Positions 22,460 through 42,588 are shown, counted from the stretch's first letter. The stretch is DNA of 64,000 nucleotides from an uncultured Bacteroides sp. (GCA_964579515.1 CAZOHA010000002.1:145096-209095), one strand, 5' to 3'. Numbers and translations are program-made. The notes: generated by a model not told the origin, from the sequence alone.

Positions 22460-22481
22460 AATCACCACCCACCAAGAACCT

Positions 22482-23225: not shown

Positions 23226-23685
23226 GGTAGACATTCAAAAATTCATTGATAATGAGGTGGACGATTTGCATCGAGATACGATAGAATCTCATTTGCAGCA
23301 CTGTAGCAAATGCAAAGAGCTATATGAAACAGCAATGCAGGATACAAGAACAATCAATGAGTTTATATCCCATACATACTCGGAAGATGAGATTATAGGC
23401 GTACCTAAGTTTAACTTGAAGCTTCAGAAGAAGAAATCTTCCTTTTACAGGGTAACTTCTTCATTGTCTTTTAAAGTGGCTGCAAGTATTGCCTTTCTCA
23501 TTGGCTTGTTTTTTATCATAAGAATCAATGTGTCACCCCCTGTTATCGCATCTGAAGATGCAGACCTTAAAATATTAGAACTCTTTGGTAATACTGAACC
23601 CAATAAAGCGTGGCATAATGGTCAGATGGTAATTGTCCTTGTGGATGAAAATGGTGAAGTAATCCAATCATTTCTTTCAGAATAA
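23209..23685 (+). CDS. anti-sigma factor, zf-HC2 type, single-pass membrane
   Basis: It overlaps the sigma gene by 17 nt. It has the H-x3-C-x2-C motif (HLQHCSKCKELY) and one TM helix (VAASIAFLIGLFFII). Confidence 0.6.
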   Translation: MNCLDRVDIQKFIDNEVDDLHRDTIESHLQHCSKCKELYETAMQDTRTINEFISHTYSEDEIIGVPKFNLKLQKKKSSFYRVTSSLSFKVAASIAFLIGLFFIIRINVSPPVIASEDADLKILELFGNTEPNKAWHNGQMVIVLVDENGEVIQSFLSE

Positions 23686-23710
23686 AACTCAAAACAATAA
23701 TCCAATAATC

Positions 23711-24961: not shown

Positions 24962-25197
24962 TGCGCTGGCTCGCGTCTTTATGAACATATTAAAAATCCA
25001 AGTTAAGGCTGGGCTTGTCATTGAAAGAAGCTTAAGCTCTTGAGTTCGACCATTGCCTCCAACTCCGTTTCCACAAGGTCATTGATACAATTGGTATGGA
25101 AGAGCCAGTTAGCAACAGTTTACTGGAATTCCCTACTCCAGCAAGCCCCATTACTGTATCTATGAAATCAACTAATTGTGACTGACCCGAAATGATC

Positions 25198-27045
25198 CTA
25201 TTTAAAAGACGTGGAATCAACCGGGACATGGTCGATTAGTACTTCAACTTCCTTGGTATAATATGGCTCAGAATCCCCATCTGCATAATACTCCAGGATT
25301 TTTGTATTGTGCGCGGCGATTTCATAATCATAACGAAAACTGATTTTGGCATCGCACAATCCAGATGAAGTTGTTGTAAATGAGCTGAATTGGATAGGTT
25401 CCTGTTCGTGGTAATTAGTCATATTTATCAGCGAACCCCAAGCGTAAAAGCAACTATGGATCACTTTTATAGTTAAAGAACGGCCTTCGGGAACCTCCAC
25501 GACCATGGAATAATATCTGTCATTTAATGATTTGTCTTCCACCTCGGTAACACTTTCGTGAAGTATATTGGTTCCATAGGTACCTGATTCAGGAAAAATG
25601 AATTGGTTTGTGGCCACAAAATCCGTCTGATTGATAAACTGATTGATATATTTCTCAAAATCAGAGATTTCATATTCGACAGTCAGTTCGTTATATCGCT
25701 GTTCAATGTTATCCCGGATATTACCCAGGTTTGCATAATTGATTCCATTGATCAGTTTTGTTCCAATGGATTCTCTGTCTATGGTGCCATCCGATTTTAA
25801 GTCTAGAGATATTTGACTCAGAAGTTCGGAGAATTCACCGGTGGTTCTATCCCCCTGAATAATTAATGATGTTGCCAAAAGAATAGCATTGTCCTCACCC
25901 GTGCTGGAAATATCCATCTGCTCTGATAACAATTGATCAACACTGACAAAACCGAAGATTCCAAGGATTTCCTCCTTAGCCTGTTGCTTTGCTGAAGCGA
26001 AACTCATCCCAGTATTCATCAACTCGGAGATCCTGTCTTTTTCAAGGTGCGAGAGTATATTTATATTGAACGATTCCTTGTTTGTTATATCTACCAGGCT
26101 GTGTAATGTTAATTGTGCTTCTGAGATTCCGCCAGATCGCTCATTAAAATAGAAGCCTTCCGCTTTTAGATGCAGAAACCCAGATTCAAGTTCTACCTTT
26201 GGAAGCTCATACCTACCTGAGTTATCTGCAATTTGAGTAGAAAACACTCTCCCGGTTGGCTGAAGGTCAGCATTTAGCTCAGATACTGTGATGGTTGATC
26301 CCAGAATATATGGTCCCTTCTGTACATATCCAACAATATCAACGGTAGCAAGGGGAACATCTAGAACATCTATGGTAACCAAGGCAAAGGAAGTTAAAGG
26401 CTGCAGACTGTCGTTATCACATACTGAGATCATACAAATTAGCTCCTGGTGCACACTATAATCGAACCAGGCAGAATCATGGATAGTGATTTCTCCGGTT
26501 AAAGTATCCAGTTGAACTGCCTGATCTTCATTGCCACTTTCGATCTTGAAGGTAAATTGTTGTTCACCATCAGGATCAGATGCATTTACAGTCCCTATTG
26601 GCGTGCCAGACTTGCTCCGCTCGTTAACAGAGAATATCTGATCCTCCACTACCGGGGCAAACTCGTTCATATCGATCAATTGAACAGTTATCCTGGCTTC
26701 TGATTCAAGTGGTTCGTTGGGATGATTGTCACTTACAACTACTTGCAAGTTGAATTTCTGGATCTTCTCAAAATCCAGCACCGAGGGATTACCAACTTTC
26801 ATTGTGCCAGAACTTGATTCCAATGAAAATGCATTCTCCGTGTTGCCTCCTATAATTTCAAAAGACAGGGAGCTTTGATCATCCAGATCGGTTGCCTCCA
26901 CTTTGCCAACAATAGTACCTGTCTTACTATTCTCGGCAATATGAAAAACCTGATCAGCCAAAACTGGTTGGTATTCATTTCTATCGCAGGATGTAAGCAA
27001 CAGGATAGCTAGGAAGGTGCTAGCAGTGAGACTGAGGGTTTTCAT
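25198..27045 (-). CDS. cadherin-repeat lipoprotein with a carboxypeptidase-regulatory-like domain and a large uncharacterised C-terminal region
   Basis: It has a lipoprotein signal (LLLTSC) and two cadherin-like repeats (VFHIAENSKTGTIVGKVEATDLDD...FEII; IFSVNERSKSGTPIGTVNASDPDGE...FKIESGN, each ending in a DxNEF/DxxD motif). A CarboxypepD_reg-like segment follows (VGYVQKGPYILGSTITVSE). Confidence 0.65.
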   Translation of the reverse strand: MKTLSLTASTFLAILLLTSCDRNEYQPVLADQVFHIAENSKTGTIVGKVEATDLDDQSSLSFEIIGGNTENAFSLESSSGTMKVGNPSVLDFEKIQKFNLQVVVSDNHPNEPLESEARITVQLIDMNEFAPVVEDQIFSVNERSKSGTPIGTVNASDPDGEQQFTFKIESGNEDQAVQLDTLTGEITIHDSAWFDYSVHQELICMISVCDNDSLQPLTSFALVTIDVLDVPLATVDIVGYVQKGPYILGSTITVSELNADLQPTGRVFSTQIADNSGRYELPKVELESGFLHLKAEGFYFNERSGGISEAQLTLHSLVDITNKESFNINILSHLEKDRISELMNTGMSFASAKQQAKEEILGIFGFVSVDQLLSEQMDISSTGEDNAILLATSLIIQGDRTTGEFSELLSQISLDLKSDGTIDRESIGTKLINGINYANLGNIRDNIEQRYNELTVEYEISDFEKYINQFINQTDFVATNQFIFPESGTYGTNILHESVTEVEDKSLNDRYYSMVVEVPEGRSLTIKVIHSCFYAWGSLINMTNYHEQEPIQFSSFTTTSSGLCDAKISFRYDYEIAAHNTKILEYYADGDSEPYYTKEVEVLIDHVPVDSTSFK

Positions 27046-27220
27046 ATAGGATACTTTTGGTTATCTGATTTGTACGAAGCAACACTTTCATAGGTTACTT
27101 CAGTATTGCTCAAATATTGAACCATCCCGCCGCATGCTTTTATTCATGCCATTCAAAGCCATTTGATTATAGTACACGTGAAAAGTCAGAGATGGCCTGG
27201 CATAAAGAGGCATTTAAAGC

Positions 27221-27243
27221 AAAAACCCCCGCCGTTTCCGACG
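27221..27243 (-). terminator. possible terminator downstream of tRNA-Lys
   Basis: The minus strand reads CGTCG-GAAA-CGGCG followed by GGGGTTTTT. The stem is weak (5 bp). Confidence 0.3.
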
Positions 27244-27262
27244 AGGATTCTCCAAAGGGTAA

Positions 27263-27332
27263 TGATTACTGTCGCGATCACTTTCGTGATTGCCTTCAGC
27301 GATCACAGCGCTGTCGCTTGTGATTCAGCTGG
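27263..27332. repeat. direct repeat copy B (overlaps the functional tRNA-Lys 3' end)
   Basis: Identical blocks are at 27276..27293, 27299..27306 and 27320..27332. The alternating GTGATT/GATCAC architecture is the same as in copy A. Confidence 0.8.
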
Positions 27333-27393
27333 GGATCGAACCCAGGACCCCCTCCTTAAAAGGGAGGTGCTCTGCCAGCTGAGCTACTGAATC
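27321..27393 (-). tRNA. tRNA-Lys (anticodon TTT)
   Basis: The minus strand folds by hand into a cloverleaf: GATTCAG-TA-GCTC-AGCTGGC-AGAGC-A-CCTCC-CTTTTAA-GGAGG-GGGTC-CTGGG-TTCGATC-CCCAG-CTGAATC-A. It has 7/4/5/5-bp stems, a GTTCGATC T-loop and anticodon TTT. CCA is not encoded. Confidence 0.92.
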
Positions 27394-27548
27394 ATCCGGT
27401 TATTGCTTTTTAAAGCGGTTGCAAAGTTAGTAAGAATAACTTTTTCTCCAAACCGTTTTTTCATGGATATTTCCTGTAATGAATCGGTCAACTGTTCGTC
27501 TTCGCTGTAGAAAGTGAATATAAAGTTCAACCAACAAAACAGGAAATC

Positions 27549-28046
27549 ATGAAAAAAGTAATCACTGCCATCATTGCCCTCGCTGTTCCGGTTCTGCTAA
27601 TGGCACAGAATTCAGCCGTAGACAGGCTGTTTGAGAAATACAGCGGAAAAGAGGGAGTCACCACCGTTAAGATCAGTCCGGAGGTTTTTCAGGTGGTGAA
27701 AGCCATGGAAATCGAGGATATCGAAACAAAAGAATTTCCCTTTGACAAGATCGCCTCCGTGAAGATACTGACCATCGAAGAAGAAGAGTTGTGGAAAGGG
27801 GTCAACTTCTACGAGGAGATTAAGAACGACCTGGATGTGGATGACTTTGCCGAAGTGATGACGGTCCAGGATGGAGGGGAGACCGTAAGGATGTGGATGA
27901 AGGTGGATCAGTCCACATTGAGCGAATTCCTTCTCATTGTGGGAGGAGACGACAATGTGATGATCTATATTACCGGCAATTTCAACATGAACGACCTGGA
28001 AGGTCTGGCATCTTCCTTCGATAAGGACCTGGATATTCATCTCTGA
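27549..28046 (+). CDS. DUF4252 domain protein (secreted)
   Basis: It has a signal peptide followed by NSAVDRLFEKYSGKEGVTTVKIS, the hallmark N-terminal pattern shared with the paralog at 29242. Confidence 0.65.
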   Translation: MKKVITAIIALAVPVLLMAQNSAVDRLFEKYSGKEGVTTVKISPEVFQVVKAMEIEDIETKEFPFDKIASVKILTIEEEELWKGVNFYEEIKNDLDVDDFAEVMTVQDGGETVRMWMKVDQSTLSEFLLIVGGDDNVMIYITGNFNMNDLEGLASSFDKDLDIHL

Positions 28047-28085
28047 TTTTGTTACCTTGGACGTTCTTGAATCTGCTGTTTTTAC

Positions 28086-28601
28086 ATGAAATCCTCAGAG
28101 TTCAAACTTCTGGTAATGCCTTACAGTTCCAGGCTGTTCAGAATGGCCTATCGCCTGATGAACAACCGGGAGGAAGCGGAGGATGTGGTCCAGGAGGTGT
28201 ATGTGAAACTATGGAACATGCGGCAGGATCTCAAGAACATCAAAAGCATCGAGGCACTGGCTGTCCGGATCACACGGAACCTCTGCCTGGATCAGCTGAG
28301 GAGAAGGAAATTAAACCAGGAAGCTCTTGCGGGAGAAAGGATTGAACCTCCCGGAAGGGCTTCCACACCAGAGGAAGAGGTGGAAAGAAACGAGGAGATC
28401 GACCTGATCCATTCTCTGATAGCCTCGCTTCCCGAACCGCAAAGGTCTCTGGTTCATCTCAGGCACCTGGAGGGGAAGGAGTATGAGGAGATTGCCGAGA
28501 TGGTCAACATGAAAGTCAATGCTATCCGGGTCAGTATTTCAAGGGCCCGCAAACAGATGCGGGAGATGCTGGAGAAAAATTATACATCATGGAAAGCCTA
28601 A
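28086..28601 (+). CDS. ECF-type RNA polymerase sigma factor
   Basis: Region 2 (EEAEDVVQEVYVKLW, ALAVRITRNLCLDQLRR) and region 4 (LRHLEGKEYEEIAEMVNMKVNAIRVSISRARKQM). Confidence 0.8.
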   Translation: MKSSEFKLLVMPYSSRLFRMAYRLMNNREEAEDVVQEVYVKLWNMRQDLKNIKSIEALAVRITRNLCLDQLRRRKLNQEALAGERIEPPGRASTPEEEVERNEEIDLIHSLIASLPEPQRSLVHLRHLEGKEYEEIAEMVNMKVNAIRVSISRARKQMREMLEKNYTSWKA

Positions 28602-29164
28602 AGGAGATACGTAAGTTGCTGGAAAGATTCTACCAGGGCGATACTACCCTGGAGGAGGAGCGGCGGATGGAGGCCTATTTCTCTTCAGGGAACGTTCCCG
28701 AAGAGATGCTTCCCGACCGGCAACTCTTTCTTTCTCTCCGGGATGAGGAGGTCAATGTGCCGGTACCGGACGATCTGGACGGGCAAATTCTGGCTGCCAT
28801 TGAACGGGAGGAGAAGAAAGAACTCCGCGGACGCAGAGTCACCCTCTACTCCCTGTCGGGTCTGGCAGCGGGTCTCCTTGCCCTGATCGCTGTATATCTG
28901 TTTTTCCTCAGGGATGACCGGCCCGAACTGGTGGCTTCCCATCAGGATACCTACGAAGATCCGATGGTGGCTTACCAGGAGGCCAAACAGGCGCTTTACT
29001 ATGTATCTTCCAAGCTGAACAGCGGAACCAGTGAACTGGTGCATGTGAAGGAGGTGACCAAAGCCACCGTGGATCCGCTGAAATCGCTTTCCAAAATCAA
29101 CAAAGGGAGTAAGGAACTGAACCTGCTGGGGCAGCTTCAGCGGGCCAGTGAAATTGAAAGATGA
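28589..29164 (+). CDS. hypothetical single-pass membrane protein (anti-sigma-like position)
   Basis: It overlaps the sigma gene by 13 nt and has one TM helix (LAAGLLALIAVYLFFL). No zf-HC2 motif is present. Confidence 0.45.
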   Translation: MESLKEIRKLLERFYQGDTTLEEERRMEAYFSSGNVPEEMLPDRQLFLSLRDEEVNVPVPDDLDGQILAAIEREEKKELRGRRVTLYSLSGLAAGLLALIAVYLFFLRDDRPELVASHQDTYEDPMVAYQEAKQALYYVSSKLNSGTSELVHVKEVTKATVDPLKSLSKINKGSKELNLLGQLQRASEIER

Positions 29165-29216
29165 GTCCATAAGAGTCCGTAAGAGTCCATAAAGTCGTAA
29201 AGTTGTAAAGTTGTAA
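29164..29216. repeat. degenerating tandem array of AGTCCRTAAG / AGTTGTAA units
   Basis: agtccataag agtccgtaag agtccataa agtcgtaa agttgtaa agttgtaa. The array starts at the stop codon of the upstream gene and ends 25 nt before the DUF4252 ATG. Confidence 0.8.
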
Positions 29217-29241
29217 AGTGGAAAATATAAATCTAAATAAG

Positions 29242-29763
29242 ATGAAACGGATAGGAATCAGCGGAGTTTTTGTGTTCCTGGCACTCGCCGTGTTGGGGCA
29301 GCAATCGGCTGTGGACAGGGTGTTCGAAAAATACAGCGGGAGAGAGGGGTATACCACCGTCTATATCTCGAGCTTTATGTTCAACCTGATGAACAGCCTG
29401 GAGGTGGATGATCCCGAGTATGACGAGTTCAAAAAGGCCACTTCGGGAATCAGCTCGATCAAGATCCTGAGTCAGGACGGCGGCAACTCGGAAGCTTTCG
29501 GAAGGGAACTGCTGGATATGCTTCCCAGGGCGGAATACCAGGAACTGATGGTGGTCAAGGAGGAGGACGAAGAGGTGCTTTTTCTGGCCAGGGAGCAGGG
29601 TGGAAGGATCACGGAGTTTCTCCTGATCGTCAGCGGGGATGACGGAAGTGATGCACTGATCGCCATTCAGGGCGACATCGATCTGGAGAGTATTTCGAAA
29701 CTGGCTTCGGGACTGGATATGCCCGGACTCGAGAATCTGGAGGATCTGGAGGAGCGCCCCTAA
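29242..29763 (+). CDS. DUF4252 domain protein (secreted)
   Basis: The ATG is at 29242 (MKRIGISGVFVFLALAVLGQQSAVDRVFEKYSGREGYTTVYIS). It is a paralog of 27549..28046. Confidence 0.65.
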   Translation: MKRIGISGVFVFLALAVLGQQSAVDRVFEKYSGREGYTTVYISSFMFNLMNSLEVDDPEYDEFKKATSGISSIKILSQDGGNSEAFGRELLDMLPRAEYQELMVVKEEDEEVLFLAREQGGRITEFLLIVSGDDGSDALIAIQGDIDLESISKLASGLDMPGLENLEDLEERP

Positions 29764-31133
29764 TAGTAGATCATTTTCTCCACCTTGTTGTTTTTCAGCC
29801 AGTTCTTAAGTATCTGCCTGACATCTCTGTTATCCAGGGCGGGTTTGATACAGTCGAGCATCTCCTCTATACCAAAGTATGCGTCGCTGACCGATAGGTA
29901 TCCGTATCCCATGTACATTCCTTTCTCCACGCGGATCAGACTCCGCTCATCCGGTTCCCGTCCCTGATCCACGATCAGCACATTTCCCCTGTCCAGTTGC
30001 AATCCGTCCAGAAGGGCCTGAGCCCGCCTGTTGTATGCCGACACTGATTCGGCCTGGATGCAGGCTCCGTTGCACTGCCTGATGGAGTGGTGAAAGCAGG
30101 CCCCGTCGGTCTGGTAAAGCCCGCTGAGCTTCTGGCACAGCCAGTGTTTCTTAACCATCCCCGTAAGCATGATACGGGCCTCCTTCTTATTGTTGTAGCA
30201 GGTGACCGGATCGTCGGGCGACTCGGATATTTTTTGAAGACGGAAGGTCATATAGCCGAATTGATCCTTCCCCGAATAGAGTCCCCAGTAGTAGCTGGAG
30301 CGCTTCTGGGCCCTGTTATACAGGGGTTTCTGATCCTTAATCTCTTTCGATTCCTTAAGAAGTGCGATCAGCTCGCTTCCGGTGAGTTCGAATGAGACTG
30401 TATGGATGCGCTCCTTCAGCTCCACCGCCCTTTTGCTGGAAGCATTGCCCAGGTGAGAGAGCACTCTGTGACGGATGTTCTTGCTTTTTCCTATATAGAG
30501 AAGCTGATGGTTTTCGTCATGGAAATAATAGGTTCCGCATGCTTCCGGCAAGTTTTCAATGTCGGAGACCGATAAATGATCGTTGAGGTTCTTATACCGG
30601 ACCGACGATTTTTCCAGCAGTTCGGGAACACCGGCACCATTCTGTTTTTCGCGCACCATCTCGAAGAGCCTTACAGTAGCCAGCGCATCTCCGGCAGCAC
30701 GGTGCCGGCCTCGGATCTCGATACCCAGTTCTTTGCAGATTTTTCCCAGCCCGTAGGAGGGATAACCGGGGAAACACTTCCTTGTCAACTTGATTGTGCA
30801 TAATGTGTCTCTCTGGTAATCAAATCCAAGCCGTCTGTACTCGCTTTTTATGAAAGAGTAGTCGAACTGGATGTTGTGACCGACCAGGATGTGATTTTCT
30901 GTTTTCTCCACAAGTTCTTTGGCCACCTCAAAGAATCTTGGGGCGTCGGACACCATTTCATTGGTTATGCCGGTAAGTCCGGTAATGAAATAGGGGATCG
31001 GTTTTTCAGGATTGATCAGTGTGCACCACTCACCAACCACTTCGTTCCCGTCGTGGAAGAAGATGGCGATTTCGGTGATTTTTTCAGTTTTGGGACTTCC
31101 TCCGGTGGTCTCGATGTCAAGAATGGCATACAT
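29760..31133 (-). CDS. DnaQ-like 3'-5' exonuclease fused to a GIY-YIG nuclease domain
   Basis: The Exo I-III motifs are AILDIETTG, LVGHNIQFDYSF and HRAAGDALAT. They are followed by a GIY-YIG region (GTYYFHDENHQLLYIGKSKNIRHRVLSH). Confidence 0.8.
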   Translation of the reverse strand: MYAILDIETTGGSPKTEKITEIAIFFHDGNEVVGEWCTLINPEKPIPYFITGLTGITNEMVSDAPRFFEVAKELVEKTENHILVGHNIQFDYSFIKSEYRRLGFDYQRDTLCTIKLTRKCFPGYPSYGLGKICKELGIEIRGRHRAAGDALATVRLFEMVREKQNGAGVPELLEKSSVRYKNLNDHLSVSDIENLPEACGTYYFHDENHQLLYIGKSKNIRHRVLSHLGNASSKRAVELKERIHTVSFELTGSELIALLKESKEIKDQKPLYNRAQKRSSYYWGLYSGKDQFGYMTFRLQKISESPDDPVTCYNNKKEARIMLTGMVKKHWLCQKLSGLYQTDGACFHHSIRQCNGACIQAESVSAYNRRAQALLDGLQLDRGNVLIVDQGREPDERSLIRVEKGMYMGYGYLSVSDAYFGIEEMLDCIKPALDNRDVRQILKNWLKNNKVEKMIYY

Positions 31134-31399: not shown

Positions 31400-31870
31400 C
31401 TAATCTTCGGGAATAAAGTCGATCGAGACCGAGTTCACACAGTGCCGGGTATTCTTCTCGGTGAAACCCTCGCCGAGGAATACGTGCCCAAGGTGGCCCC
31501 CGCAGTTGGTGCAAATGATCTCTGTCCGGAGACCATCCGCATCCGGGACCCGCTTCACCGCACCTTCGATCTCATCGTCGAAGCTGGGCCATCCGCAATT
31601 GCTGTCGAATTTATCTCCCGAACGGTAGAGCGGAGCGTTACAGCGCTTGCAGACATAGACCCCTTTCTCTTTATGGTCCACAAATTCGCCCGACCAGGGA
31701 CGCTCTGTTCCCTTTTTCAGTATTACATACTCCTCGAAAGGTGTGAGTTCATTATAGTCTTCCGGATTCATAATCAATTTCTTAACGGGCTTGCGCGTAT
31801 TTTCCGGTTCCTGGGCGCAACCAGTCACGGTCCATGCCAGCAAGCATATGGTGAATAATATTTTTATCAT
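31400..31870 (-). CDS. msrB: peptide-methionine (R)-S-oxide reductase MsrB, secreted/lipoprotein form
   Basis: It has a signal peptide (LLAWTVTGC), CxxC...CxxC zinc site ([20 protein letters not shown]), GWPSF and RHCVNS motifs. Confidence 0.9.
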
Positions 31871-31945: not shown

Positions 31946-33055
31946 TCAATTCCAGAGACCCGGTATCGAATGACCGCATCCGGAACAGTTCCCGCGGTCC
32001 AGTTCATTCCGGGTGATGCGGTACCCCGAACGGCCGATCACCACCTCTCCGCAACGGGGACAGACAGTATCTGTGGCGTTGTTGCCCGGTACGTTGCCGA
32101 TGTATACATAACGGAGCCCTTCCGACCGGGCGATCTGGCTGGCTTTCTCCAGGGTCCTGACCGGTGTGGCGGGAAGGCGCTGGAGTTTATACTGGGGATG
32201 AAACCGGCTGAAATGCAGGGGTGTATCTTCGAAACCATTGGTCAATAACCAGTTGCACATTCTTTTGATCATCTCCATATCATCGGTCCAGGAGGGGACC
32301 ACCAGATTGGTGATCTCGAGCCAGACCCCTTCATTTTTGAGGGTTTTCAGTGTTTCCAATACCGGTCCCAGCTTACCTGCATTGAGCTTCAGGTAAATAG
32401 TATCATCCATCGACTTGAGGTCAATGTTGGCCCCGTCGATCACCCGGCAGAGATTCAGAAGCGGATCCCTTTGGATATACCCGGCCGACACCAAAACGTT
32501 ATAGATTCCCTCCTCATGAGCCAGCCGGGCCGAATCGTATGTGTATTCGTAAAAGGTGATCGGTTCCGAGTAGGTGTAGGCGATGCTGCGGCACCCATAA
32601 GAGATAGCATTGGATACCACCTGATCGGGCATCAGGTCGTAATTCTTAGTCTCTTCGGGTGATGATTGAGAAATGGTCCAGTTCTGACAGTTGAGGCATG
32701 CCAGGTTGCAACCGGCCGTGGCGATGGAGAAGGCCTTCGTGCCGGGAACAAAATGGTATAGTGGTTTCTTTTCGATGGGATCCAGGTGCACCGCACAGGG
32801 GTTCCCGTAGGCAATGGTGTAAAGCTTTCCGTCATAGACCCTCCGGTTGTGGCAATCACTCAGTTCTCCTTCTTTCAGGGTGCATTCATTGGGGCAGATC
32901 AGGCAGCGTATCCCTTTAGGGGTCTCTGCCTGGTACATCGCCTCCTTGCTCCATTTCCATCTTTTGTCGGTTTCTCCTGCCGTTAACGGTGCGGGGCAGA
33001 AAAATGCTCCGGCGGTCCCGCAGAGGCCGGTCTTCAGAAAAGTCCGCTTGTCCAT
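31946..33055 (-). CDS. amrS: AmmeMemoRadiSam system radical SAM enzyme with a Tat-like leader
   Basis: The ORF 31946..33703 was trimmed to the ATG at 33055, which is preceded by GGAAGGAG. The N-terminus MDKRTFLKTGLCGTAGAFFCPAPLTAG is a K-R variant of the S/T-R-R-x-F-L-K Tat motif. The radical SAM cluster is AGCNLACLNCQNW. The C-terminus has CPRCG...CSGCG. Confidence 0.85.
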   Translation of the reverse strand: MDKRTFLKTGLCGTAGAFFCPAPLTAGETDKRWKWSKEAMYQAETPKGIRCLICPNECTLKEGELSDCHNRRVYDGKLYTIAYGNPCAVHLDPIEKKPLYHFVPGTKAFSIATAGCNLACLNCQNWTISQSSPEETKNYDLMPDQVVSNAISYGCRSIAYTYSEPITFYEYTYDSARLAHEEGIYNVLVSAGYIQRDPLLNLCRVIDGANIDLKSMDDTIYLKLNAGKLGPVLETLKTLKNEGVWLEITNLVVPSWTDDMEMIKRMCNWLLTNGFEDTPLHFSRFHPQYKLQRLPATPVRTLEKASQIARSEGLRYVYIGNVPGNNATDTVCPRCGEVVIGRSGYRITRNELDRGNCSGCGHSIPGLWN

Positions 33056-33069
33056 ATCCGTCTCCTTCC

Positions 33070-35613
33070 TCACTGCCTTGTCCAAAGGTAGAGCCCGGCA
33101 GCCATATTCATTCCAGCCAGCAAGATAAAAGTATTTGGGATTCCGATCAAGGGCATGATAAACAGCGAGGGGATCAATGTGCCCAGTGCCGCGCCGGCCA
33201 GGTCCGCACTGAAAAGGGTTCCGATGTAGGAGGAGACACTTCCTTTCGAGACAGATCTTAAACGTATGATGGACAGTGATATACTGTATATTATCCCCAC
33301 CATCAGGCCCGGCAGGACATTCAGCAGGATCAGAAGTGATTGTCCGATCCAACCGGTGCGAAAGAGTTCTTCCCGGGGAAGCAACCACGCGGTGAGGAGT
33401 GCGGTAAGTCCCATCATTCCGGACATAATGGCAAGTGAAGAGGGACCGGGAGTATGCCAGATTCTTTTCCACAGCAGGGTACCGGCAACGATTCCCCCCA
33501 TGAACAGAGTGATCAGAAGGGGGGCGGCCAGGTAGGCCACTCCGAAGCGGGACTGATAAACGAAAATGATCAGAATCTGAATACCGGCCCCGGTAAATCC
33601 TGCGATGTACATTCCGGAGGTCAGCGGACGATAGGTAAAAAGGAGGAAAAGGAATACCAGACTGCCCAGGATTCCAACCGCCGGAAGGGTGTAGGTTCCC
33701 CACCTTGACTGGAGGGTGGTGAGACTGGCTAAGAAGAGAGTGGGCCGGAGGTCGCGGTTGATAGTTACTTCCGGATTTTTCAGTCTGTCCATCAGCTGGT
33801 CATGATCGAAGCGGAGGCTGGCAATGTCGAGGTAATCAGGGTGCACATAGGTGGTCGGGATAGGGTGCTGCTCCAGGAGGTCAATGAAATCGAGCGACAG
33901 GGAACTGTCCGAAGCCAGAAAGTAGGTGGAATTCCCGGGGACTACCAGGATGTGACGGAAGACACGCTGAAGAGTTCGATAATTGACAGAGAGCTCCTCC
34001 ATCCCCGGTTCATTGATGTAATTGCCGCTGGTGGTCAGCTGCATGCAGAAGATACCCCCTCCGGAGAGCCGCTCTCTGACCAGCCGGAAAAACTCCAGGG
34101 AGAAATACCGGTTCCATCCCAGGGTCACCGGATTTCCTGCCATGGAGATGATCACATCGTAGCTTACAGTGTCATTTTCCCGGAGCCATTTTCGACCTCC
34201 TGTCTCTATTACATTCATCTTCTCCAGATGGGCAGAGGGCAGAAAGCGGCTGCCCACCTCGATCAGCCGGGGATCCATTTCGCAGTAATCCACTCTGGAA
34301 GGACGGTATTTCAGTACCTCTGCGGCTACCTCACCGAGCCCTCCCCCCAGCAGGAGGAACCGGTCCGGATCGGGATGTTGCAGGGCGGGGTAGTGGACGC
34401 TCTCCTCCGACCGGGCCGGGTCGAATGAACTGAGTATGGGATTTCGGTCCATGTAACCGGTCACCTGTCCCGCCTGCATGGTGAAGGTCAGATTTCCGAA
34501 AGGGGTATCCTCTGTGGCGGCCACCTCCCGGTGGCGATAACTCCATCCTTCGATCTCTTCGGGAACTCCGGGTAACAACAGTAAAACTGCTGTAAGTGAG
34601 GCCCCTGTCAGCAGCAGCAACCGTTTCCATCGCCCCGCGGGATAACGGAAAAACCAGGCCATGGCTGCAGAGGTTCCGGCGAACAGGAGTCCCAGGACCT
34701 GAATATTATCCAGGAAGAAGATCAGGAAAAGGCTGAATAATCCTCCCCCTGCCAGGGCCCCCATGGAGTCGTAACGGTAGAAGGATTCATCGCCGGGTCG
34801 ATCCCCGCGGGAGCCAGATCGTTCACCGGAGAAGCTGGTTTTTTCTCTGAGGGACCGGGCAATGTATCCGAAAAGAAATCCCGAGGTCAGTGTGAACAGG
34901 CTGAGCAAAAGCAGGATATCGGTCACAGATGCCAGCAGTCCGGGCAGGAATCCCGGAAGGAATATGAACCGGGTCACCCCGATCTGTAACAGGTAGATGA
35001 CCAGGGGAATGCCTCCGAGAAAAAGGATGGTGCGCCAGAGAGAACCGGGTCTGATCGCTCCGGGGTATTGCGCCCCGGTCCGGGCTCCGGCAGCGGTGAG
35101 GATCATCCAGAGCGCCAGGTATACCCCGATATAGAGTTCATTCCCGTGGAAGGTCTTAACGAATGTTCTCAGCAGAACCAGCTGGGCGATCATGCTTACC
35201 ATGCCCATCAGAACGAACAGGCGTTTGATCTGCAAGTTGTTCAATGATAGGTGTTTCGACTCCTGATGCAGGTCCGCCTGGCCGGCTGGCGGGGTGGCTT
35301 TTCCCAGCCGGAGGAAATAGCGGAAATGCCATATAATATGGAACAGGGAAACAATGGTCAGCCCGATTCCCATATCCACATGCCACTGAAGGGCCTGATC
35401 GAGCCAGGGGAGATCCAGCTTGTAATTGACCCTGATGGCCAGAAGAATTCCCAGAAGTGCTGTGGAGAGGAAAAAGAAAAGCAGCAGGAAATTCCATAAT
35501 TTCCGGTGACGGGATCTGCCTATGATTCTGTATCTGACCCCCATCAGTCCCAGCAGGTAGGCGGCGATCAGCAGTAAACCCAGAGAGAAAAGGTGATAAG
35601 GGCCCTGGCTCAT
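33070..35613 (-). CDS. large polytopic membrane protein with an embedded spermidine-synthase-like fold (fused MFS/spermidine synthase type)
   Basis: 847 aa. The N-terminal helices carry a His motif (WHVDMGIGLTIVSLFHIIWHF), followed by ~8 TM helices. The soluble domain has LLLGGGLGEVAAEVLK, VDYCEMDPRLIE and YDVIISMAGNP. About 6 further TM helices follow. Its start overlaps the upstream stop (ATGA). Confidence 0.7.
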   Translation of the reverse strand: MSQGPYHLFSLGLLLIAAYLLGLMGVRYRIIGRSRHRKLWNFLLLFFFLSTALLGILLAIRVNYKLDLPWLDQALQWHVDMGIGLTIVSLFHIIWHFRYFLRLGKATPPAGQADLHQESKHLSLNNLQIKRLFVLMGMVSMIAQLVLLRTFVKTFHGNELYIGVYLALWMILTAAGARTGAQYPGAIRPGSLWRTILFLGGIPLVIYLLQIGVTRFIFLPGFLPGLLASVTDILLLLSLFTLTSGFLFGYIARSLREKTSFSGERSGSRGDRPGDESFYRYDSMGALAGGGLFSLFLIFFLDNIQVLGLLFAGTSAAMAWFFRYPAGRWKRLLLLTGASLTAVLLLLPGVPEEIEGWSYRHREVAATEDTPFGNLTFTMQAGQVTGYMDRNPILSSFDPARSEESVHYPALQHPDPDRFLLLGGGLGEVAAEVLKYRPSRVDYCEMDPRLIEVGSRFLPSAHLEKMNVIETGGRKWLRENDTVSYDVIISMAGNPVTLGWNRYFSLEFFRLVRERLSGGGIFCMQLTTSGNYINEPGMEELSVNYRTLQRVFRHILVVPGNSTYFLASDSSLSLDFIDLLEQHPIPTTYVHPDYLDIASLRFDHDQLMDRLKNPEVTINRDLRPTLFLASLTTLQSRWGTYTLPAVGILGSLVFLFLLFTYRPLTSGMYIAGFTGAGIQILIIFVYQSRFGVAYLAAPLLITLFMGGIVAGTLLWKRIWHTPGPSSLAIMSGMMGLTALLTAWLLPREELFRTGWIGQSLLILLNVLPGLMVGIIYSISLSIIRLRSVSKGSVSSYIGTLFSADLAGAALGTLIPSLFIMPLIGIPNTFILLAGMNMAAGLYLWTRQ

Positions 35614-37283
35614 GGTTCGGCCCCCTCACCGAATACGATCGCCTCGTAAGTGTAAAGGTCCGCCTCCTTCCAGCCTTCCCATCCAATACCTGCCTTTTCC
35701 CTGGCACAATGTCCCAGGAAATCTTCCCTGGACCAGTTTCTGTCTTCAGCCACCTGGGGAAGAAAGGTGCCCGACCTTCCATCTTTCGTCATGTAAATCC
35801 CATGCCGGCCCAATTCTAGTTCTTCCACCGACCGGATTAGTTTCAGGGGGGTGAGAACAGAGATTTCGATACGGAGATACTCCAGTTCAGGTGGTTCCAC
35901 TGCGGCAAAACGGCTGTCCCGCATGGCCGCAGAGAGGGTCATCTCCTGAATGGTCCGGTAAAGCGGACCGGATGAGTTGAAATGGCCGATACAACCGCGC
36001 AAACGGTCCCCCATATAAAGGCTTACAAAGGCTCCCGCAGGCATAGTTAAGGAAGCTGGCAGATCCGCTTCGTCTACCAAAGGGATTTCTCCTGTCAGCA
36101 GATAGCTCTCCAGGGTCTTTCTGGAAATGGTAAGCAGCCGGTCCTTGTCTTCCGGTCTCATCTGGAGTAAGGCTTCTGAAGGATCCGCAGCCCGTGCGGC
36201 AATGGCCCAGTAACCCACCACCCGGGACCGGTCGCCCTGGGTAGCATCTCCCGAATTCATATACCTTATCGCCTCGAAGACCAGGTCATCGCGCCTCTGA
36301 GACATATAGAGAAGGGTCAGTATGGAACTCCAGCCGCAGCAGGAGGTGGCCAGGTTGGGGATCCCCTCGCGGCTGTTCTTCCGGAGGGTATTGTAGAAAC
36401 TGGAAGGATCGCCGGTCAGAATGGCATCGGCGGTCCGGCGGTCCACTCTCAGAGCATTTTCATAGGGTGGGTAGTGGGAGAAGTCGGAGCTGATGACAAA
36501 TAAGTTTTCTGCGGTGTAATAGGGCAGGAGTGCCCCGGCCAGGTCTCTGGCGTTCTCTACGCTGGAAGAGCCCATGACGATGGGGACGATGGGAGGCAGC
36601 TCGCTGAAGCGGTGCTGCAGAAAAGGCAGCTGCACTTCGATGCTGTGCTCCCTGTCGTGTGCCTCCGGCAGGAAACTCAGGTGGGGGTGGCTGTCGATCA
36701 GTTTCTTCGCCAGATCCCTGTTCACCTCCACCTCTCCCAGAGGGGTGAAATAATTTCCGGCGGAATAGATGGAAGAACCCGTAAACTGCTCCCGGTGAGA
36801 TGAAGCTATGATGAAGATGTTATCGTATGAGGATCTGGAAGGAAGACTCTTATAACCCGCAGCGGCCACCTCTCCGGAGTAGGCATATCCTGCGTGGGGA
36901 ACGATGAGCGACTGGATCCTCCCCTTTTGTTCTGAAGGTTCGGCATCAGACATGAGCTTCTTAAGGGCCGGTTCCAGAGCTTCCGGGCGGGCAGGATAGA
37001 AACTGCCGGCCACGGCCGGGTAACGGTGCACCGGATCGCCCGGCGTCTGGGCAGCCAGAGCGGTCAGGAAACAGGAGAGAAGGATGGTCGCCGCGGTGCG
37101 CATGAGGGTAAAATTAACCATATTCTCCAGTTTTTTATGGAGTTCGATGCGTTTATCCTTATTTCTTGTTTCCAGGTCCATGGCGACCTGTGCCACCTGC
37201 CTGTCCACATGGAAACGGAGATAGAGGGCCTTCACCTCTTCCTTCGAAAACATCCCGAGAGTTTTAGGTAATGAATTGTTCAT
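35610..37283 (-). CDS. fused AmmeMemoRadiSam system protein B (Memo) and protein A (AMMECR1)
   Basis: The Memo half has GSFYP, IVPHAGYAYSG, SSDFSHY and CGW. The AMMECR1 half has GAFVSLY, LRGCIGHF, DSRF and GTFLPQV. An internal hydrophobic segment MRTAATILLSCFLTALAAQ suggests the true start is 37121 or 37103, giving a signal peptide. The longest-ORF start at 37283 is kept as the outer bound. Confidence 0.85.
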   Translation of the reverse strand: MNNSLPKTLGMFSKEEVKALYLRFHVDRQVAQVAMDLETRNKDKRIELHKKLENMVNFTLMRTAATILLSCFLTALAAQTPGDPVHRYPAVAGSFYPARPEALEPALKKLMSDAEPSEQKGRIQSLIVPHAGYAYSGEVAAAGYKSLPSRSSYDNIFIIASSHREQFTGSSIYSAGNYFTPLGEVEVNRDLAKKLIDSHPHLSFLPEAHDREHSIEVQLPFLQHRFSELPPIVPIVMGSSSVENARDLAGALLPYYTAENLFVISSDFSHYPPYENALRVDRRTADAILTGDPSSFYNTLRKNSREGIPNLATSCCGWSSILTLLYMSQRRDDLVFEAIRYMNSGDATQGDRSRVVGYWAIAARAADPSEALLQMRPEDKDRLLTISRKTLESYLLTGEIPLVDEADLPASLTMPAGAFVSLYMGDRLRGCIGHFNSSGPLYRTIQEMTLSAAMRDSRFAAVEPPELEYLRIEISVLTPLKLIRSVEELELGRHGIYMTKDGRSGTFLPQVAEDRNWSREDFLGHCAREKAGIGWEGWKEADLYTYEAIVFGEGAEP

Positions 37284-37989: not shown

Positions 37990-38970
37990 TCAGTAACCAC
38001 TCCGATCCAGGTAACGGGGGTGGCCGGGGGGAAGTTCCGATGAGCTCTTCCCTTCCAGGGCACGTTTCCTGAAATGGTGGCTGGCATCGTAGAAATCGTC
38101 CGACAAGTCCACTTCAAAAACCAGAATCCCCGGCCGGTCTGCTTCCAGTTTTCCTGCCACCAGTCCGTCCGGTGTGATAAAATGGTTAGGCCAGCTGGAG
38201 GCAGCCGAGGAGTTGGTCACCGACATGTAGAAGTGGTTGGTGGCTGCCCGGGCCTGACAGGTCACCGGCATGATTTTCGGATGGATGCCTCCCGGTCTCT
38301 GGCGGGCATTGTAGAAGGACTGGAAGATCATCTGAACACCTCTGCGGCAGTAATCGCGGTAGAGCTCGGGATATCGGACATCGAAACAGATCAGCAGTCC
38401 GCATCGGATACCGTTGATCTCGAAGATCACCGGATGGCCCCCGGCCGAGAAATGCTCCAGGTCGTCCATGGTGCAGAACCGTTTGTCATATCGGTCGCAT
38501 ATCTGACCATCGGGGCCGATCAGATAGAGGCTGTTCATGGGGCGGGTTGTTTCGTCCAGAAAATGAGCTGATCCGAGGATGACCCATATATTCAGGTCGG
38601 CCGCCCTTTTCCGGATGGAATCGGTCCATGACCGCAACACCGGCCAGTCCAATCCGCTCAGATCGTCCAGATCCACCCCGGGGTATCCGGTGAGCGCCAG
38701 CTCGGGGAAATGGACCAGCCGGGCTCCCGAATCAGCCGCGGCCTCCATCTGGGCAATGATCCACCGGCCATTTTCCTCTATGGAGGAGGAGACCGGGAAC
38801 TGGCATGCAGCCACCTTCAACCTTCCCGGTTGATTCATCCTTCCCTGTTGATTCATCCTTCCCTGTTGATTCATCCTTCCCTGTTGAGGATCGGAATTCA
38901 TCTGCGCTTCGATTTCCAGAGGGGCACAGATAAAAAAGAGTGTAAGCAGGAATAACGAAAAATTGGTCAT
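37990..38970 (-). CDS. secreted carbon-nitrogen hydrolase family protein with an N-terminal QQGRMN repeat
   Basis: It has a signal peptide (FLLTLFFICAPLEIEAQ) and a (QQGRMN)x3 repeat. The CN-hydrolase core follows: VAACQFP, FPELALTGY (Glu), YDKRF (Lys), LICFDVRYPE (Cys). Confidence 0.75.
   Translation of the reverse strand: MTNFSLFLLTLFFICAPLEIEAQMNSDPQQGRMNQQGRMNQQGRMNQPGRLKVAACQFPVSSSIEENGRWIIAQMEAAADSGARLVHFPELALTGYPGVDLDDLSGLDWPVLRSWTDSIRKRAADLNIWVILGSAHFLDETTRPMNSLYLIGPDGQICDRYDKRFCTMDDLEHFSAGGHPVIFEINGIRCGLLICFDVRYPELYRDYCRRGVQMIFQSFYNARQRPGGIHPKIMPVTCQARAATNHFYMSVTNSSAASSWPNHFITPDGLVAGKLEADRPGILVFEVDLSDDFYDASHHFRKRALEGKSSSELPPGHPRYLDRSGY
38821..38890. repeat. 18-bp in-frame tandem repeat (about 3.7 copies)
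   Basis: The unit ccttccctgttgattcat occurs at 38839 and 38857, with a variant copy at 38821 and a partial copy at 38875. It encodes QQGRMN on the minus strand. Confidence 0.85.
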
Positions 38971-40851: not shown

Positions 40852-42588
40852 ATGCCAGCTAAGAAATCATCCTTCGAACCCCTGGAGGGTACACTTCACA
40901 GGCCGCTCTATGTGGGTCCCGGAATACTGATCGTACTTATACAATGGTTGTTATGGCTGGTACTGCCGGCACTTTTTCCAGGCCCCTGGGCCATGGCGGT
41001 GGGCGTTTTCGGGGGGATGCTGGGCGGTATCGCCCTGCTGATCTGGTGGGGCTTCTTCAGCAGGGCTCCCCGGGTGGAACGGATCGGGGGGGTGTTGTTG
41101 ATGATCGTCTCCCTGCTGATCGCCTACCGGTTCACCCACCGGTCAATTGCCACCAGCATGCAGGGAATAATGTACTTCGCCTATGCCATCCCATGGATGA
41201 GTCTGGCCGTGGTCATCGCAGCCCTGCTGACCGCCAGGGCGGCCCCTCTTACTCGCCGGATCGTCATGACATCCGTGATCCTGGTCTCCGCCGGATTCTG
41301 GACTCTACTGCGTTCGGAGGGTATGACCGGTCAGGCCGGATTCAAGATCGTCTGGCGCTGGACGGAGACCCACGAACAGGAGCTTCTTACCAGCGCAGCC
41401 GAGGAATCGTTCAATAACCGGGCTTATCCGGAGCGTCGAAGTGGCCATTATGAATGGCCAGGATTCAGGGGCAGGGAGAGGAACAGTATTGTGCCGGGGA
41501 TCCGCATCGCCGCCGACTGGACTGCCAGTCCCCCGGAAGAGCTGTGGAGAAGAGCAGTGGGACCCGGTTGCTCCTCTTTTGCGGTCATGGGGAATTTCAT
41601 ATATACCCAGGAACAGCGGGGAGATTATGAAATGGTCACCTGTTACCGGCTTTCCGATGGCGAACCGGTCTGGAAACATGAGGACCCGGTAAGATTCTGG
41701 GATTCCCATGCGGGAGCGGGCCCCAGGTCCACTCCCTTTTATCACCAGGCGAGGGTCTATGCCCTGGGGGCCACAGGGATCCTCAATGCTCTTGATGCGG
41801 GGGACGGATCCCTGATCTGGAGCAGAAATGCCTCTGCCGATTCCGGGGTGGAGCTGACCGATTGGGGAATGTGCAGTTCTCCGCTGGTGGTGGATAACAT
41901 GGTGGTGGTTGCCCTCCAGGGGAAAATGGTCGCGTACGACCTGAATAGCGGAGAGCCGCTCTGGAGCGGACCCGTTGGAGGCGAGAGTTACAGTTCACCG
42001 CATTTGTGCATGCTTGACGGGGTGAAACAGATAGTAATGATGAGTGAATACGGTGCCACGAGTTTCCAGCCGTCGGACGGAACCATTCTCTGGGAGTACA
42101 CCAGGCAGGAACCGCGGATCGTACAACCGGCCGTCTGCGGCGAGCGTGAGCTGCTGGTCAGTGCCGGCGGGGTGAAGGGGCTCTGCAGGCTGTCGGTCCG
42201 CCAGGAAAGTGGCACCTGGAAAGTGAATGAGCAGTGGCTCTCCCGCCGGCTGAGGCCCAACTTCAACGATTTCGTGGTCCATAAGGGCCATATCTATGGT
42301 TACGAAGGTCAGGCCCTGGCCAGTATCGACCTGGAAAACGGGAACAGGAACTGGCGCGGAGGCCGATACGGGGGACAGATCCTCCTCCTGCCTGACCAGG
42401 ATCTGCTGCTGTTGATAACCGAGGGCGGAGAACTGGTTCTCGCAGATGCAAAGCCCGGCGGGCTGAATGAAGTGGCCCGTTTCCCTGCCATCGAGGGGAA
42501 GACCTGGAATCATCCGGCACTGGCGGGTGACATCCTGCTGGTCAGGAACACCCGCGAGATGGCGGCTTTCAGGCTGCCCATCCTGTAG
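40852..42588 (+). CDS. membrane-anchored PQQ-like (BamB-type) beta-propeller repeat protein
   Basis: There are about five N-terminal TM helices. Repeated blades follow, of the type G..YA(L/Y)D...G...W (LNALDAGDGSLIWS, MVAYDLNSGEPLWS, SIDLENGNRNWR). Confidence 0.65.
   Translation: MPAKKSSFEPLEGTLHRPLYVGPGILIVLIQWLLWLVLPALFPGPWAMAVGVFGGMLGGIALLIWWGFFSRAPRVERIGGVLLMIVSLLIAYRFTHRSIATSMQGIMYFAYAIPWMSLAVVIAALLTARAAPLTRRIVMTSVILVSAGFWTLLRSEGMTGQAGFKIVWRWTETHEQELLTSAAEESFNNRAYPERRSGHYEWPGFRGRERNSIVPGIRIAADWTASPPEELWRRAVGPGCSSFAVMGNFIYTQEQRGDYEMVTCYRLSDGEPVWKHEDPVRFWDSHAGAGPRSTPFYHQARVYALGATGILNALDAGDGSLIWSRNASADSGVELTDWGMCSSPLVVDNMVVVALQGKMVAYDLNSGEPLWSGPVGGESYSSPHLCMLDGVKQIVMMSEYGATSFQPSDGTILWEYTRQEPRIVQPAVCGERELLVSAGGVKGLCRLSVRQESGTWKVNEQWLSRRLRPNFNDFVVHKGHIYGYEGQALASIDLENGNRNWRGGRYGGQILLLPDQDLLLLITEGGELVLADAKPGGLNEVARFPAIEGKTWNHPALAGDILLVRNTREMAAFRLPIL

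Follow-up and report, generated by a model that had tools for sequence, protein, structure and literature searches.

An AmmeMemoRadiSam operon with predicted export signals and an embedded membrane protein in an uncultured Bacteroides sp.

Introduction

Can an AmmeMemoRadiSam system operate in the cell envelope, and what would a large membrane protein do in the middle of its operon? The question is raised by a 64,000-nucleotide stretch of DNA from an uncultured Bacteroides sp. (GCA_964579515.1 CAZOHA010000002.1:145096-209095), referred to below as the window, in which positions 31946-37283 carry three co-oriented minus-strand genes: a Memo-AMMECR1 fusion (amrAB), an 847-aa membrane protein called Mid here, and the radical S-adenosylmethionine (SAM) enzyme AmrS. 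Conservation of MEMO1 and AMMECR1 extends from archaea to humans, in whom both have been linked to disease; to our knowledge, no biochemical function has been assigned to either protein or to the bacterial trio. The Memo-AMMECR1-radical SAM gene neighbourhood was described in 2007 (Balaji & Aravind, PMC2034487), and an RNA-base-modification role was proposed there for the canonical trio. The analysis described below strongly supports Mid as a conserved, specific partner of a signal-bearing AmmeMemoRadiSam subclass found in several phyla. The trio was already known; its envelope-targeted, Mid-paired form appears to be new and is well supported as a conserved envelope-targeted module.

Operon layout and family membership

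The genes and the element between the second and third are as follows.

35610..37103, minus strand: amrAB, Memo-AMMECR1 fusion (PF01875 and PF01871); the mechanical open reading frame (ORF) extends to 37283, with the likely start M61 at 37103
33070..35613, minus strand: mid, 847 aa, 17 transmembrane (TM) helices, fused MFS/spermidine-synthase family (NF037959 and PF01564)
33062..33069, minus strand: Shine-Dalgarno-like element GGAAGGAG, from direct reading, inside the 14-nt gap 5' of amrS
31946..33055, minus strand: amrS, radical SAM enzyme (TIGR04337, 363.3 bits against a cut-off of 220)

The amrAB stop codon TGA shares the sequence ATGA (35610-35613) with the mid ATG, a 4-nt overlap, and 14 nt separate the end of the mid ORF from the amrS ATG (33055). 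An initial annotation, made by a model from the sequence alone, had described a fused Memo and AMMECR1 ORF overlapping 33070..35613 by ATGA, and a ribosome-binding-site-like GGAAGGAG at 14-nt spacing before the AmrS start; the family scans and the directly read junctions agree with both. The hidden Markov model (HMM) searches that it had proposed (TIGR04335, TIGR04336, TIGR04337 and NF037959) all gave scores above cut-off. All three canonical components, encoded by adjacent genes in the same orientation, thus exceed curated cut-offs, which strongly supports the three canonical domains as intact family members. The two domains of the fusion were placed as follows.

36204..37019, minus strand: Memo domain, PF01875 at aa 89-360, E 2.4e-56; PHAGY, SSDFSH and CCGW intact in the translation
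35631..36131, minus strand: AMMECR1 domain, PF01871 at aa 385-551, E 1.3e-45; LRGCIGHF and DSRF intact

The Memo part scored 248.1 bits against TIGR04336 (cut-off 26), a match that begins at aa 87, and the AMMECR1 part scored 147.7 bits against TIGR04335 (cut-off 99). The AMMECR1 motifs RGChG and DxR-aromatic are those defined in PMC2034487. No riboswitch or other RNA element was detected in the operon leader, the sole RNA match in the window being a tRNA elsewhere, and a sigma-70 promoter and terminator scan returned no more sites than shuffled sequence did.

Linkage of Mid to amr genes

A homology search returned about 100 full-length Mid orthologues at 45-63% identity in Bacteroidota metagenome-assembled genomes (MAGs). 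A locus scan of 185,579 species, each represented by a single genome, gave 34 loci, 32 of them from Bacteroidota, and the order Memo-AMMECR1, Mid, AmrS was found in 32/32 of these wherever flanking DNA existed. Conserved order in close relatives alone could be inherited synteny. Distant Mid homologues (24-33% identity) again adjoin amr genes, in different arrangements. One Marinimicrobia locus (L033) has Mid followed by convergent AMMECR1, Memo and AmrS genes, a second (L034) has divergent AmrS and Mid genes, and further re-linked loci were found in Bryobacterales (L035) and at L039, L122, L123 and L124. At least five other amr-Mid gene orders are present in Marinimicrobia, Acidobacteriota and many metagenome lineages. 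When eight of the distant Mid proteins were looked up, five were amr-linked. The Mid-amr linkage is no chance insertion: the initial annotation had set this test beforehand, and Mid is syntenic with amr genes throughout the Bacteroidota loci and re-linked to them in Marinimicrobia, Bryobacterales and metagenome contigs. The wider co-occurrence survey that it had called for likewise found the linkage recurring across phyla.

The linkage was also surveyed from the AmrS side in a metagenome scan of 80 loci with 41-66% identity to AmrS, in which a Mid-profile HMM placed a Mid homologue less than 10 kb from AmrS in 35/80. Mid stood beside a signal-bearing AmrS in 30/53 cases versus 4/22 for a signal-less AmrS (Fisher p = 0.0025, odds ratio 5.9). 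All-against-all ORF clustering of 89 loci gave as recurrent neighbours AmrS, Memo-AMMECR1, Mid, DUF362 (23 loci), a DUF6599-like lipoprotein and generic regulators and ABC proteins; no substrate peptide or other common partner emerged from these 89 loci, and no lipid-biosynthesis genes recurred in the neighbourhoods.

MsrB and DUF1360 were rejected as members of the system, since they flank the operon only in closely related Bacteroidota loci, which indicates lineage synteny. Downstream of amrS, at a distance of 75 nt, is the msrB gene of the window (SelR, E 2.5e-42; 31400-31870, minus strand), the product of which has a signal of lipoprotein type, LLAWTVTGC. MsrB occupies that place in 27/32 close Bacteroidota loci and is absent from all distant Mid/Amr loci; its adjacency is probably lineage synteny. 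A periplasmic MsrB would likewise need an electron supply.

Predicted targeting signals on AmrS and AmrAB

AmrS contains the cluster motif CNLACLNC (CxxxCxxC), the N-terminal Cys motif and the C-terminal Zn-ribbon Cys residues, all in invariant columns, and its secondary matches are to families resembling the activase of pyruvate formate-lyase (PFL). Both soluble proteins of the operon have an N-terminal sequence ahead of the family models.

32927..33055, minus strand: 43-aa N-terminal addition of AmrS with a signal of twin-arginine translocation (Tat) type, MDKRTFLKTGLCGTAGAFFCPAPLTA, followed by basic DKRWKWSKE; the TIGR04337 model begins at aa 44
37047..37103, minus strand: Sec-type signal peptide MRTAATILLSCFLTALAAQ of AmrAB, assigned by inspection and from orthologue N-termini

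In 32/32 AmrS orthologues, the pattern MDKRTF(L/I)KTG was followed by residues of weak hydrophobicity and then by the basic segment KPWKWS. At the same position, canonical twin-arginine motifs were found in AmrS proteins encoded beside distant Mid homologues: TRREFCLQSG (L033), SRRAFLKSAL (L035), TRRELLATVG (L123) and TRRNFLGLCG (L124). The Tat-like K-R variant proposed by the initial annotation is therefore kept in all close orthologues and is R-R in most distant relatives beside Mid. K-R can work in Tat signals, as in Salmonella TtrB; like Tat-exported Fe-S proteins with such signals, AmrS matches the Tat consensus in D-K-R-T-F-L-K except for the first Arg, has a weakly hydrophobic h-region and a basic c-region, and carries an Fe-S passenger that must fold before export. 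We know of no radical SAM enzyme shown to be a Tat substrate.

N-termini were then classed by inspection for the AmrS family at large, using the 150 best cluster representatives of 7,280 hits, from which 35 with extended N-termini were retrieved. Of these, 29 were Tat-like (27 R-R or K-R and 2 R-K) and 5 had other signals or anchors; all extended proteins tested still scored above the TIGR04337 cut-off, and short AmrS proteins (~330-345 aa) have no N-terminal extension. The 80 metagenome loci gave 49 Tat-like (35 R-R, 10 K-R), 4 Sec/TM-like and 22 signal-less AmrS proteins.

In AmrAB, translation most likely starts at M61 (ATG 37103), because every Bacteroidota orthologue has a hydrophobic N-terminus ending in ..AQ(D/E/Q), and translation from M61 would therefore place MRTAATILLSCFLTALAAQ at the AmrAB N-terminus. 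The signal-peptide-like stretch noted in the initial annotation is thus present; it is N-terminal and not internal if this start is used. By inspection, where AmrS bears a signal its Memo-AMMECR1 partner nearly always has one too, of Sec or lipoprotein type, and in a canonical locus with a signal-less AmrS (L101) the Memo-AMMECR1 protein also has no signal. From these comparisons there is strong support for both soluble proteins carrying predicted N-terminal targeting sequences that are absent from cytoplasmic family members.

A second, unrelated radical SAM protein of 349 aa is encoded beside Tat-type AmrS and Mid at L124:8179-9228 (minus strand). Because this protein carries a canonical Tat motif, MEITRRDLIKNTLLLGG, AmrS may not be the only kind of radical SAM enzyme with a Tat signal.

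Set against the known AmmeMemoRadiSam systems, the operon is alike in scoring above cut-off for every domain, in its intact catalytic motifs, in having adjacent genes that point the same way, and in a Memo-AMMECR1 fusion of the kind seen in many bacteria. It differs in its predicted export signals, which lie outside the family models (AmrS from aa 44, Memo from aa 87), and in its embedded fourth membrane component, with NapGH-like, NosR-like and DUF362 genes in other lineages. As of June 2026, no Amr-specific NCBIfam model for Mid was found. The initial annotation had regarded the four-part architecture as undescribed, and the literature searched yielded no description of it, nor any of an AmrS of Tat type, a radical SAM enzyme in the periplasm or the association with Mid; Burroughs et al. 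2019, which was outside the scope of the search, may mention it.

Membrane architecture of Mid

An AlphaFold2 model of Mid built from 68 homologues (pLDDT 88, pTM 0.87) has 3 helices (aa 8-95), 7 helices (126-346), a soluble domain (357-640) and 7 further helices (642-845), for a total of 17 TM helices. The general plan given by the initial annotation stands; its helix numbers, a pair followed by about 8, the soluble domain and about 6, are replaced by 3, 7, soluble domain and 7. The parts are as follows.

35302..35613, minus strand: N-terminal 3-TM His module of Mid, aa 1-104; DUF4405-like, defined from His conservation
34651..35238, minus strand: first 6-TM repeat, aa 126-321, with an LLR(E)F..FHGNEL motif, from the AlphaFold2 helices
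33694..34545, minus strand: spermidine-synthase-fold domain, aa 357-640, carried by TM10 and TM11, predicted periplasmic
33079..33627, minus strand: second 6-TM repeat, aa 663-845, with Q687 and a D804-L-x-G motif and a predicted cytoplasmic C-terminus

Helices 4-9 and 12-17 are homologous repeats (hhalign probability 94.5%, E 8e-8), and because of this repeat the core is read as 6+6, its halves oriented alike as they are in MFS transporters; in the model, the soluble domain is borne on a hairpin made up of helices 10 and 11. A Foldseek search with the model of the first half (pLDDT 88) gave MFS proteins the best probabilities (ferroportin and SLC15A4 0.94, MdfA 0.92). No Pfam MFS match was obtained on Mid, and a profile search of PDB sequences with its TM half returned nothing; beyond the NCBIfam name, the model points only weakly to an MFS assignment of the core.

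The summed Lys and Arg content of the loops was 22.3 on the proposed cytoplasmic side versus 5.3 on the other, with the cytoplasmic side higher in 68/68 homologues, and 16.7 versus 3.4 for the core common to distant homologues. Because of these positive-inside counts, the spermidine-synthase-like domain is probably periplasmic and the C-terminus cytoplasmic. At L077, the Mid C-terminus runs into a NosR/NapH-like module, which is compatible with a cytoplasmic C-terminus.

The spermidine-synthase-fold domain

PF01564 matches Mid at aa 403-550 (E 1.4e-19), and NF037959, "fused MFS/spermidine synthase", scores 59.7 bits (cut-off 40), a name that NCBI also gives to the homologues. Equivalog scores fall far below their cut-offs (TIGR00417, 62.5 versus 249.55; PRK00811, 69.5 versus 260; PRK03612, 105.9 versus 472). 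Foldseek's top 50 matches to the domain consist entirely of spermidine/spermine synthases and polyamine aminopropyltransferases, with 1uir the best (E 7e-9), and phmmer matches it to 2b2c at E 2e-13. The fold is complete, with a beta-hairpin N-domain and a Rossmann domain. Residue conservation was read from 66 Mid homologues aligned with solved spermidine synthases; in the lines below, dcSAM stands for decarboxylated SAM.

Mid 426: Asp of GGGDG, dcSAM-specific; in the family always hydrophobic among the commonest residues tabulated, with no D; L in the window (GGGLGE)
Mid 445: ribose-binding Glu; kept in 58/66; E in the window
Mid 472: adenine-binding Asp; kept in 63/66; G in the window, which deviates
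Mid 491: first catalytic Asp; mostly lost in the family; M in the window
Mid 494: second acidic residue; D/E in 53/66; N in the window, which deviates
Mid 495, 501 and 502: family-specific; P, N and R about invariant; kept in the window
Mid 150: TM4 Glu; E in 62/66; T in the window, which deviates

The alignment bears out the earlier readings of GGGLG in place of GGGDG and of SMAGNP in place of D-x-x-D-P. In the family, the invariant Pro is preceded by an acidic residue (consensus x-x-x-G/P-D/E-P), and the SMAGNP of the window is atypical even there. The three deviations may indicate a relaxed or altered function of Mid in this organism; its closest relative shares D472G only. The initial annotation had judged classical spermidine synthase chemistry unlikely, and the absence of the dcSAM-specific and first catalytic Asp residues and the missed equivalog cut-offs lead to the same judgement. 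Going by the family's conservation pattern, the domain looks like an adenosyl-ligand-binding domain or a modified transferase, not an aminopropyltransferase, and the public "spermidine synthase" labels on the family are very probably wrong.

Compared with SpeE (Thermus 1UIR, Thermotoga 1JQ3, human 2O06), the domain shares the two-part fold (TM-score ~0.65-0.7 on the target) and, at family level, the ribose Glu and adenine Asp; unlike SpeE, it has a hydrophobic residue for the GGGDG Asp, has lost the first catalytic Asp, is membrane-embedded and is predicted to face the periplasm. With NF037959 and PRK03612 proteins, Mid shares an N-terminal TM region with LLREF..HGNEL and the spermidine-synthase fold. 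It differs from them in that the domain sits on a TM hairpin between two 6-TM repeats and is predicted periplasmic, in the 3-TM His module added in Bacteroidota, and in its probable functional tie to a putatively exported radical SAM system, of which no earlier account was found. We know of no characterised member of the NF037959 subfamily. The possibility, raised earlier, that Mid belongs to a well-characterised family with an unrelated function is not borne out, as Mid matches this "fused MFS/spermidine synthase" subfamily only.

Candidate electron-transfer modules

H78 and H92 of the His module, 14 residues apart on TM3, are invariant (56/56), and H7, H36 and H96 are 86-93% conserved. The module is confined to Bacteroidota-type Mid and a few metagenome relatives (L039, L042, L043 and L047). 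Its Pfam matches are sub-threshold (Ni_hydr_CYTB 0.014, DUF4405 5.5e-4, Ferric_reduct 0.031), all three families belonging to the two-haem cytochrome b clan, and a profile search against PDB sequences gave no match. A profile search showed that stand-alone homologues exist, one of them named DUF4405 by NCBI. On this pattern the module might be an electron conduit, a tentative assignment. Three small proteins (P0315, P0301 and P0304, from Bacteroidota, Thermoleophilia and Nanoarchaeia MAGs) consist of a signal peptide and the Cys-rich motif CPGxCGxYxDxxxDGxCD followed by a 3-TM His module with the motif HRKxWN ... WHV(D/E)xGI ... FHxxWHxxYY.

Redox genes of another kind accompany Mid in related loci. 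The L033 cluster encodes a NapH+NapG-like fusion (NF007012, E 1e-28; TIGR02163, E 1.5e-16) adjoining a DUF362 gene, the product of which is above the curated TAT cut-off (TIGR01409, 20.5 > 16.7), and Tat-signalled DUF362 often accompanies the Mid/amr clusters of other lineages. DUF362 was ruled out as a ferredoxin, as it belongs to a LarA-like Pfam clan. A 1,304-aa fusion of Mid, an RnfG/NosR-type FMN-binding domain and a NapH/NosR-like membrane Fe-S domain is encoded at L077:12781-16695 (plus strand), next to a signal-less AmrS and a Memo-AMMECR1 protein with an N-terminal TM anchor. By analogy with NapGH and NosR, the NapH+NapG-like fusion beside Mid and the NosR-like FMN-binding and NapH parts fused to it suggest a membrane-to-periplasm electron supply, as for NapAB or NosZ. 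Unlike in those loci, such genes are absent from the window, where only the DUF4405-like His module, with a putative haem, could serve; in addition, the radical SAM cluster as acceptor needs a much lower potential than the nitrate or N2O reductases. The complementarity between the His module and redox genes is partial, with several Mid loci having neither within reach.

Proposed system and alternative explanations

We consider it likely that the operon encodes a conserved, functionally linked, envelope-targeted system. The synteny, the targeting signals, the predicted periplasmic Mid domain and the bias of Mid to signal-bearing AmrS all fit the earlier proposal of an envelope-targeted variant with a dedicated membrane partner. 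The operon is read here as an extracytoplasmic version of AmmeMemoRadiSam in which Mid supplies SAM and/or electrons, with a probability of roughly 0.5. AmrS would be loaded with its Fe-S clusters in the cytoplasm and exported folded via Tat (with the K-R variant here), the Memo-AMMECR1 fusion would be exported via Sec, and Mid would be an inner-membrane service module that enables radical SAM chemistry outside the cytoplasm. Its MFS-like 6+6 core would carry SAM outward, or adenosyl and methionine by-products back, a carrier role that we regard as possible and somewhat doubtful. The periplasmic domain, lacking the dcSAM-specific and first catalytic Asp residues, would hold an adenosyl ligand or hand it over beside AmrS. 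Electrons would cross the membrane through the Bacteroidota-specific His module, and NapGH-like or NosR-like proteins may take that part elsewhere. The substrate would be resident in the envelope (a lipid or isoprenoid, a periplasmic metabolite or a protein) and would not be RNA. The source of SAM and reductant, about which the initial annotation had asked, would thus become the core of the mechanism. Such a supply mechanism is plausible and of high interest if confirmed; the full picture, in which periplasmic radical SAM chemistry occurs in several phyla with an inner-membrane machine that exports SAM, presents it and feeds electrons, is put forward with reserve.

Several observations weigh against this reading. 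In the window, the K-R motif scores below the Pfam TAT_signal cut-off (11.9 versus 22.7 bits), and neither tatA/tatC nor any other Tat-like N-terminus was found in the 64 kb. The Mid copy of the window has lost three near-invariant residues (E150T, D472G and D/E494N), including the adenine-binding Asp, and its ligand binding may be impaired. Foldseek with the first half of Mid returned nothing at E <= 1e-3, so that the MFS likeness is weak, and the haem assignment of the His module rests on sub-threshold matches. Among the loci, three of the eight distant Mid proteins looked up were unlinked to amr genes (P0108, P0113 and P0116), Tat-type AmrS was found with no Mid inside ~10 kb at 5 loci, and AmrS was signal-less at four Mid loci. 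Envelope features are nevertheless seen at each of the four. At two of them (L070 and L098) AmrS starts directly after a Tat-signalled DUF362 gene and the Memo-AMMECR1 protein is a lipoprotein; at the other two (L077 and L083) the Memo-AMMECR1 protein has an N-terminal TM anchor. We know of neither a bacterial SAM exporter nor a radical SAM enzyme characterised from the periplasm.

The main rival, which would have the same localisation, makes Mid a catalyst of the pathway: a periplasmic SAM-dependent alkyl transferase (methyl, aminopropyl or aminocarboxypropyl), the TM core of which holds a membrane substrate such as an isoprenoid or lipid that AmrS and Memo-AMMECR1 modify before or after. The fold is complete, and the GGG loop, ribose Glu, adenine Asp, acidic residue before Pro and N501/R502 that are retained in the family resemble a live active site more than a mere binding module. 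A change of ligand from dcSAM to SAM would agree with the loss of the GGGDG Asp, given what that residue does in spermidine synthases, and Burroughs and co-workers reportedly linked Memo contexts to the modification of aliphatic isoprenoids. Yet most members lack the first catalytic Asp, transport is needed anyway because SAM would have to get to the periplasm in this case too, and the neighbourhoods show no recurrent genes for making lipids; this explanation is rated as rather unlikely. A further alternative is that Mid is an ordinary membrane-bound polyamine aminopropyltransferase whose position amid amr genes is meaningless. Its PF01564 match and matches to spermidine-synthase NCBIfam models at E 1e-17 to 1e-30 would suit that explanation, but the equivalog scores are far under cut-off (62.5 versus 249.55; 106 versus 472), the dcSAM-specific and catalytic Asp residues are absent, and the amr linkage is found again in five or more gene orders in different phyla, which makes it extremely improbable.

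Two other explanations, also less likely, concern where the proteins act and on what. If nothing were exported, the N-termini would be uncleaved anchors or tethers and the system would lie at the cytoplasmic face, with Mid as a scaffold whose domain is cytoplasmic. This would sidestep the problem of periplasmic SAM and low-potential electrons, and it fits both the pairing of signal-less AmrS with TM-anchored Memo-AMMECR1 at L077 and L083 and the sub-threshold K-R motif of the window. The positive-inside ratio of 4:1 for a periplasmic domain in 68/68 homologues speaks against it, as do the canonical S/T-R-R-x-F-L-K motifs and basic c-regions of most distant AmrS proteins and the lipoboxes and AQ-type cleavage sites of their partners; the NapG-like and RnfG/NosR FMN-binding neighbours also resemble servers of periplasmic enzymes, and Tat-signalled DUF362 recurs. 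A wholly cytoplasmic-face system is accordingly held to be improbable. Mid might instead be the substrate or activation target of AmrS, with a radical or other modification on its periplasmic domain, since AmrS is nearest to glycyl-radical activases (its PFL-activase-like secondary matches) and strict co-occurrence fits an enzyme-substrate pair. Most AmrS members are cytoplasmic and have no Mid, so that the common substrate of the family cannot be Mid, and no glycyl-radical-like motif was seen in Mid; a role as target is considered quite improbable.

Returning to the extracytoplasmic reading, the search for a substrate is narrowed by a widespread subclass in which all parts are sent to the cell envelope. 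The RNA-base modification proposed in 2007 sits poorly with a periplasmic location: if periplasmic, the system does not modify cytoplasmic RNA, at least in the envelope subclass. Experiments gain new handles in the membrane partner and its probable adenosyl-ligand site, in the accessory redox proteins and in a compartment whose metabolite background is simple. If AmrS is active in the periplasm, radical SAM enzymes can also act outside compartments that are reducing and contain SAM, and there must be a route for SAM export as well as a path for low-potential electrons across the inner membrane. If true, it would give a first example both of a periplasmic radical SAM system and of a bacterial SAM exporter, and the conserved Memo/AMMECR1 chemistry would act on a small molecule or lipid and not on RNA.

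Other features of the window

A stretch at ~22000-27400 has a G+C content of 0.385 versus ~0.53 elsewhere, encodes an ECF sigma factor, a zf-HC2 anti-sigma factor, a DUF5128 beta-propeller protein and a 615-aa cadherin-domain protein, and is bounded by a tRNA gene at 27321-27393 (minus strand); it may be a horizontally acquired island. At 27549-29763 (plus strand), genes for a sigma-70-family factor (28086-28601) and a probable anti-sigma factor (28589-29164) lie between those for two DUF4252 paralogues, each with a signal peptide. A PQQ_2/Beta-prop_ACSF4 beta-propeller protein with an N-terminal multi-TM region is encoded at 40852-42588 (plus strand), ~3.5 kb from the operon, and a protein of the same Pfam families is encoded directly downstream of an amr-unlinked Mid homologue (L041:4719-6563); their proximity to Mid in both places may be coincidence. 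The gene at 29760-31133 (minus strand) encodes a 457-aa fusion of a DEDDh exonuclease (RNase_T) and a GIY-YIG nuclease domain, and that at 37990-38970 (minus strand) encodes a carbon-nitrogen hydrolase (PF00795) with a signal peptide and a tandem MNQQGR/MNQPGR repeat ahead of the catalytic domain.

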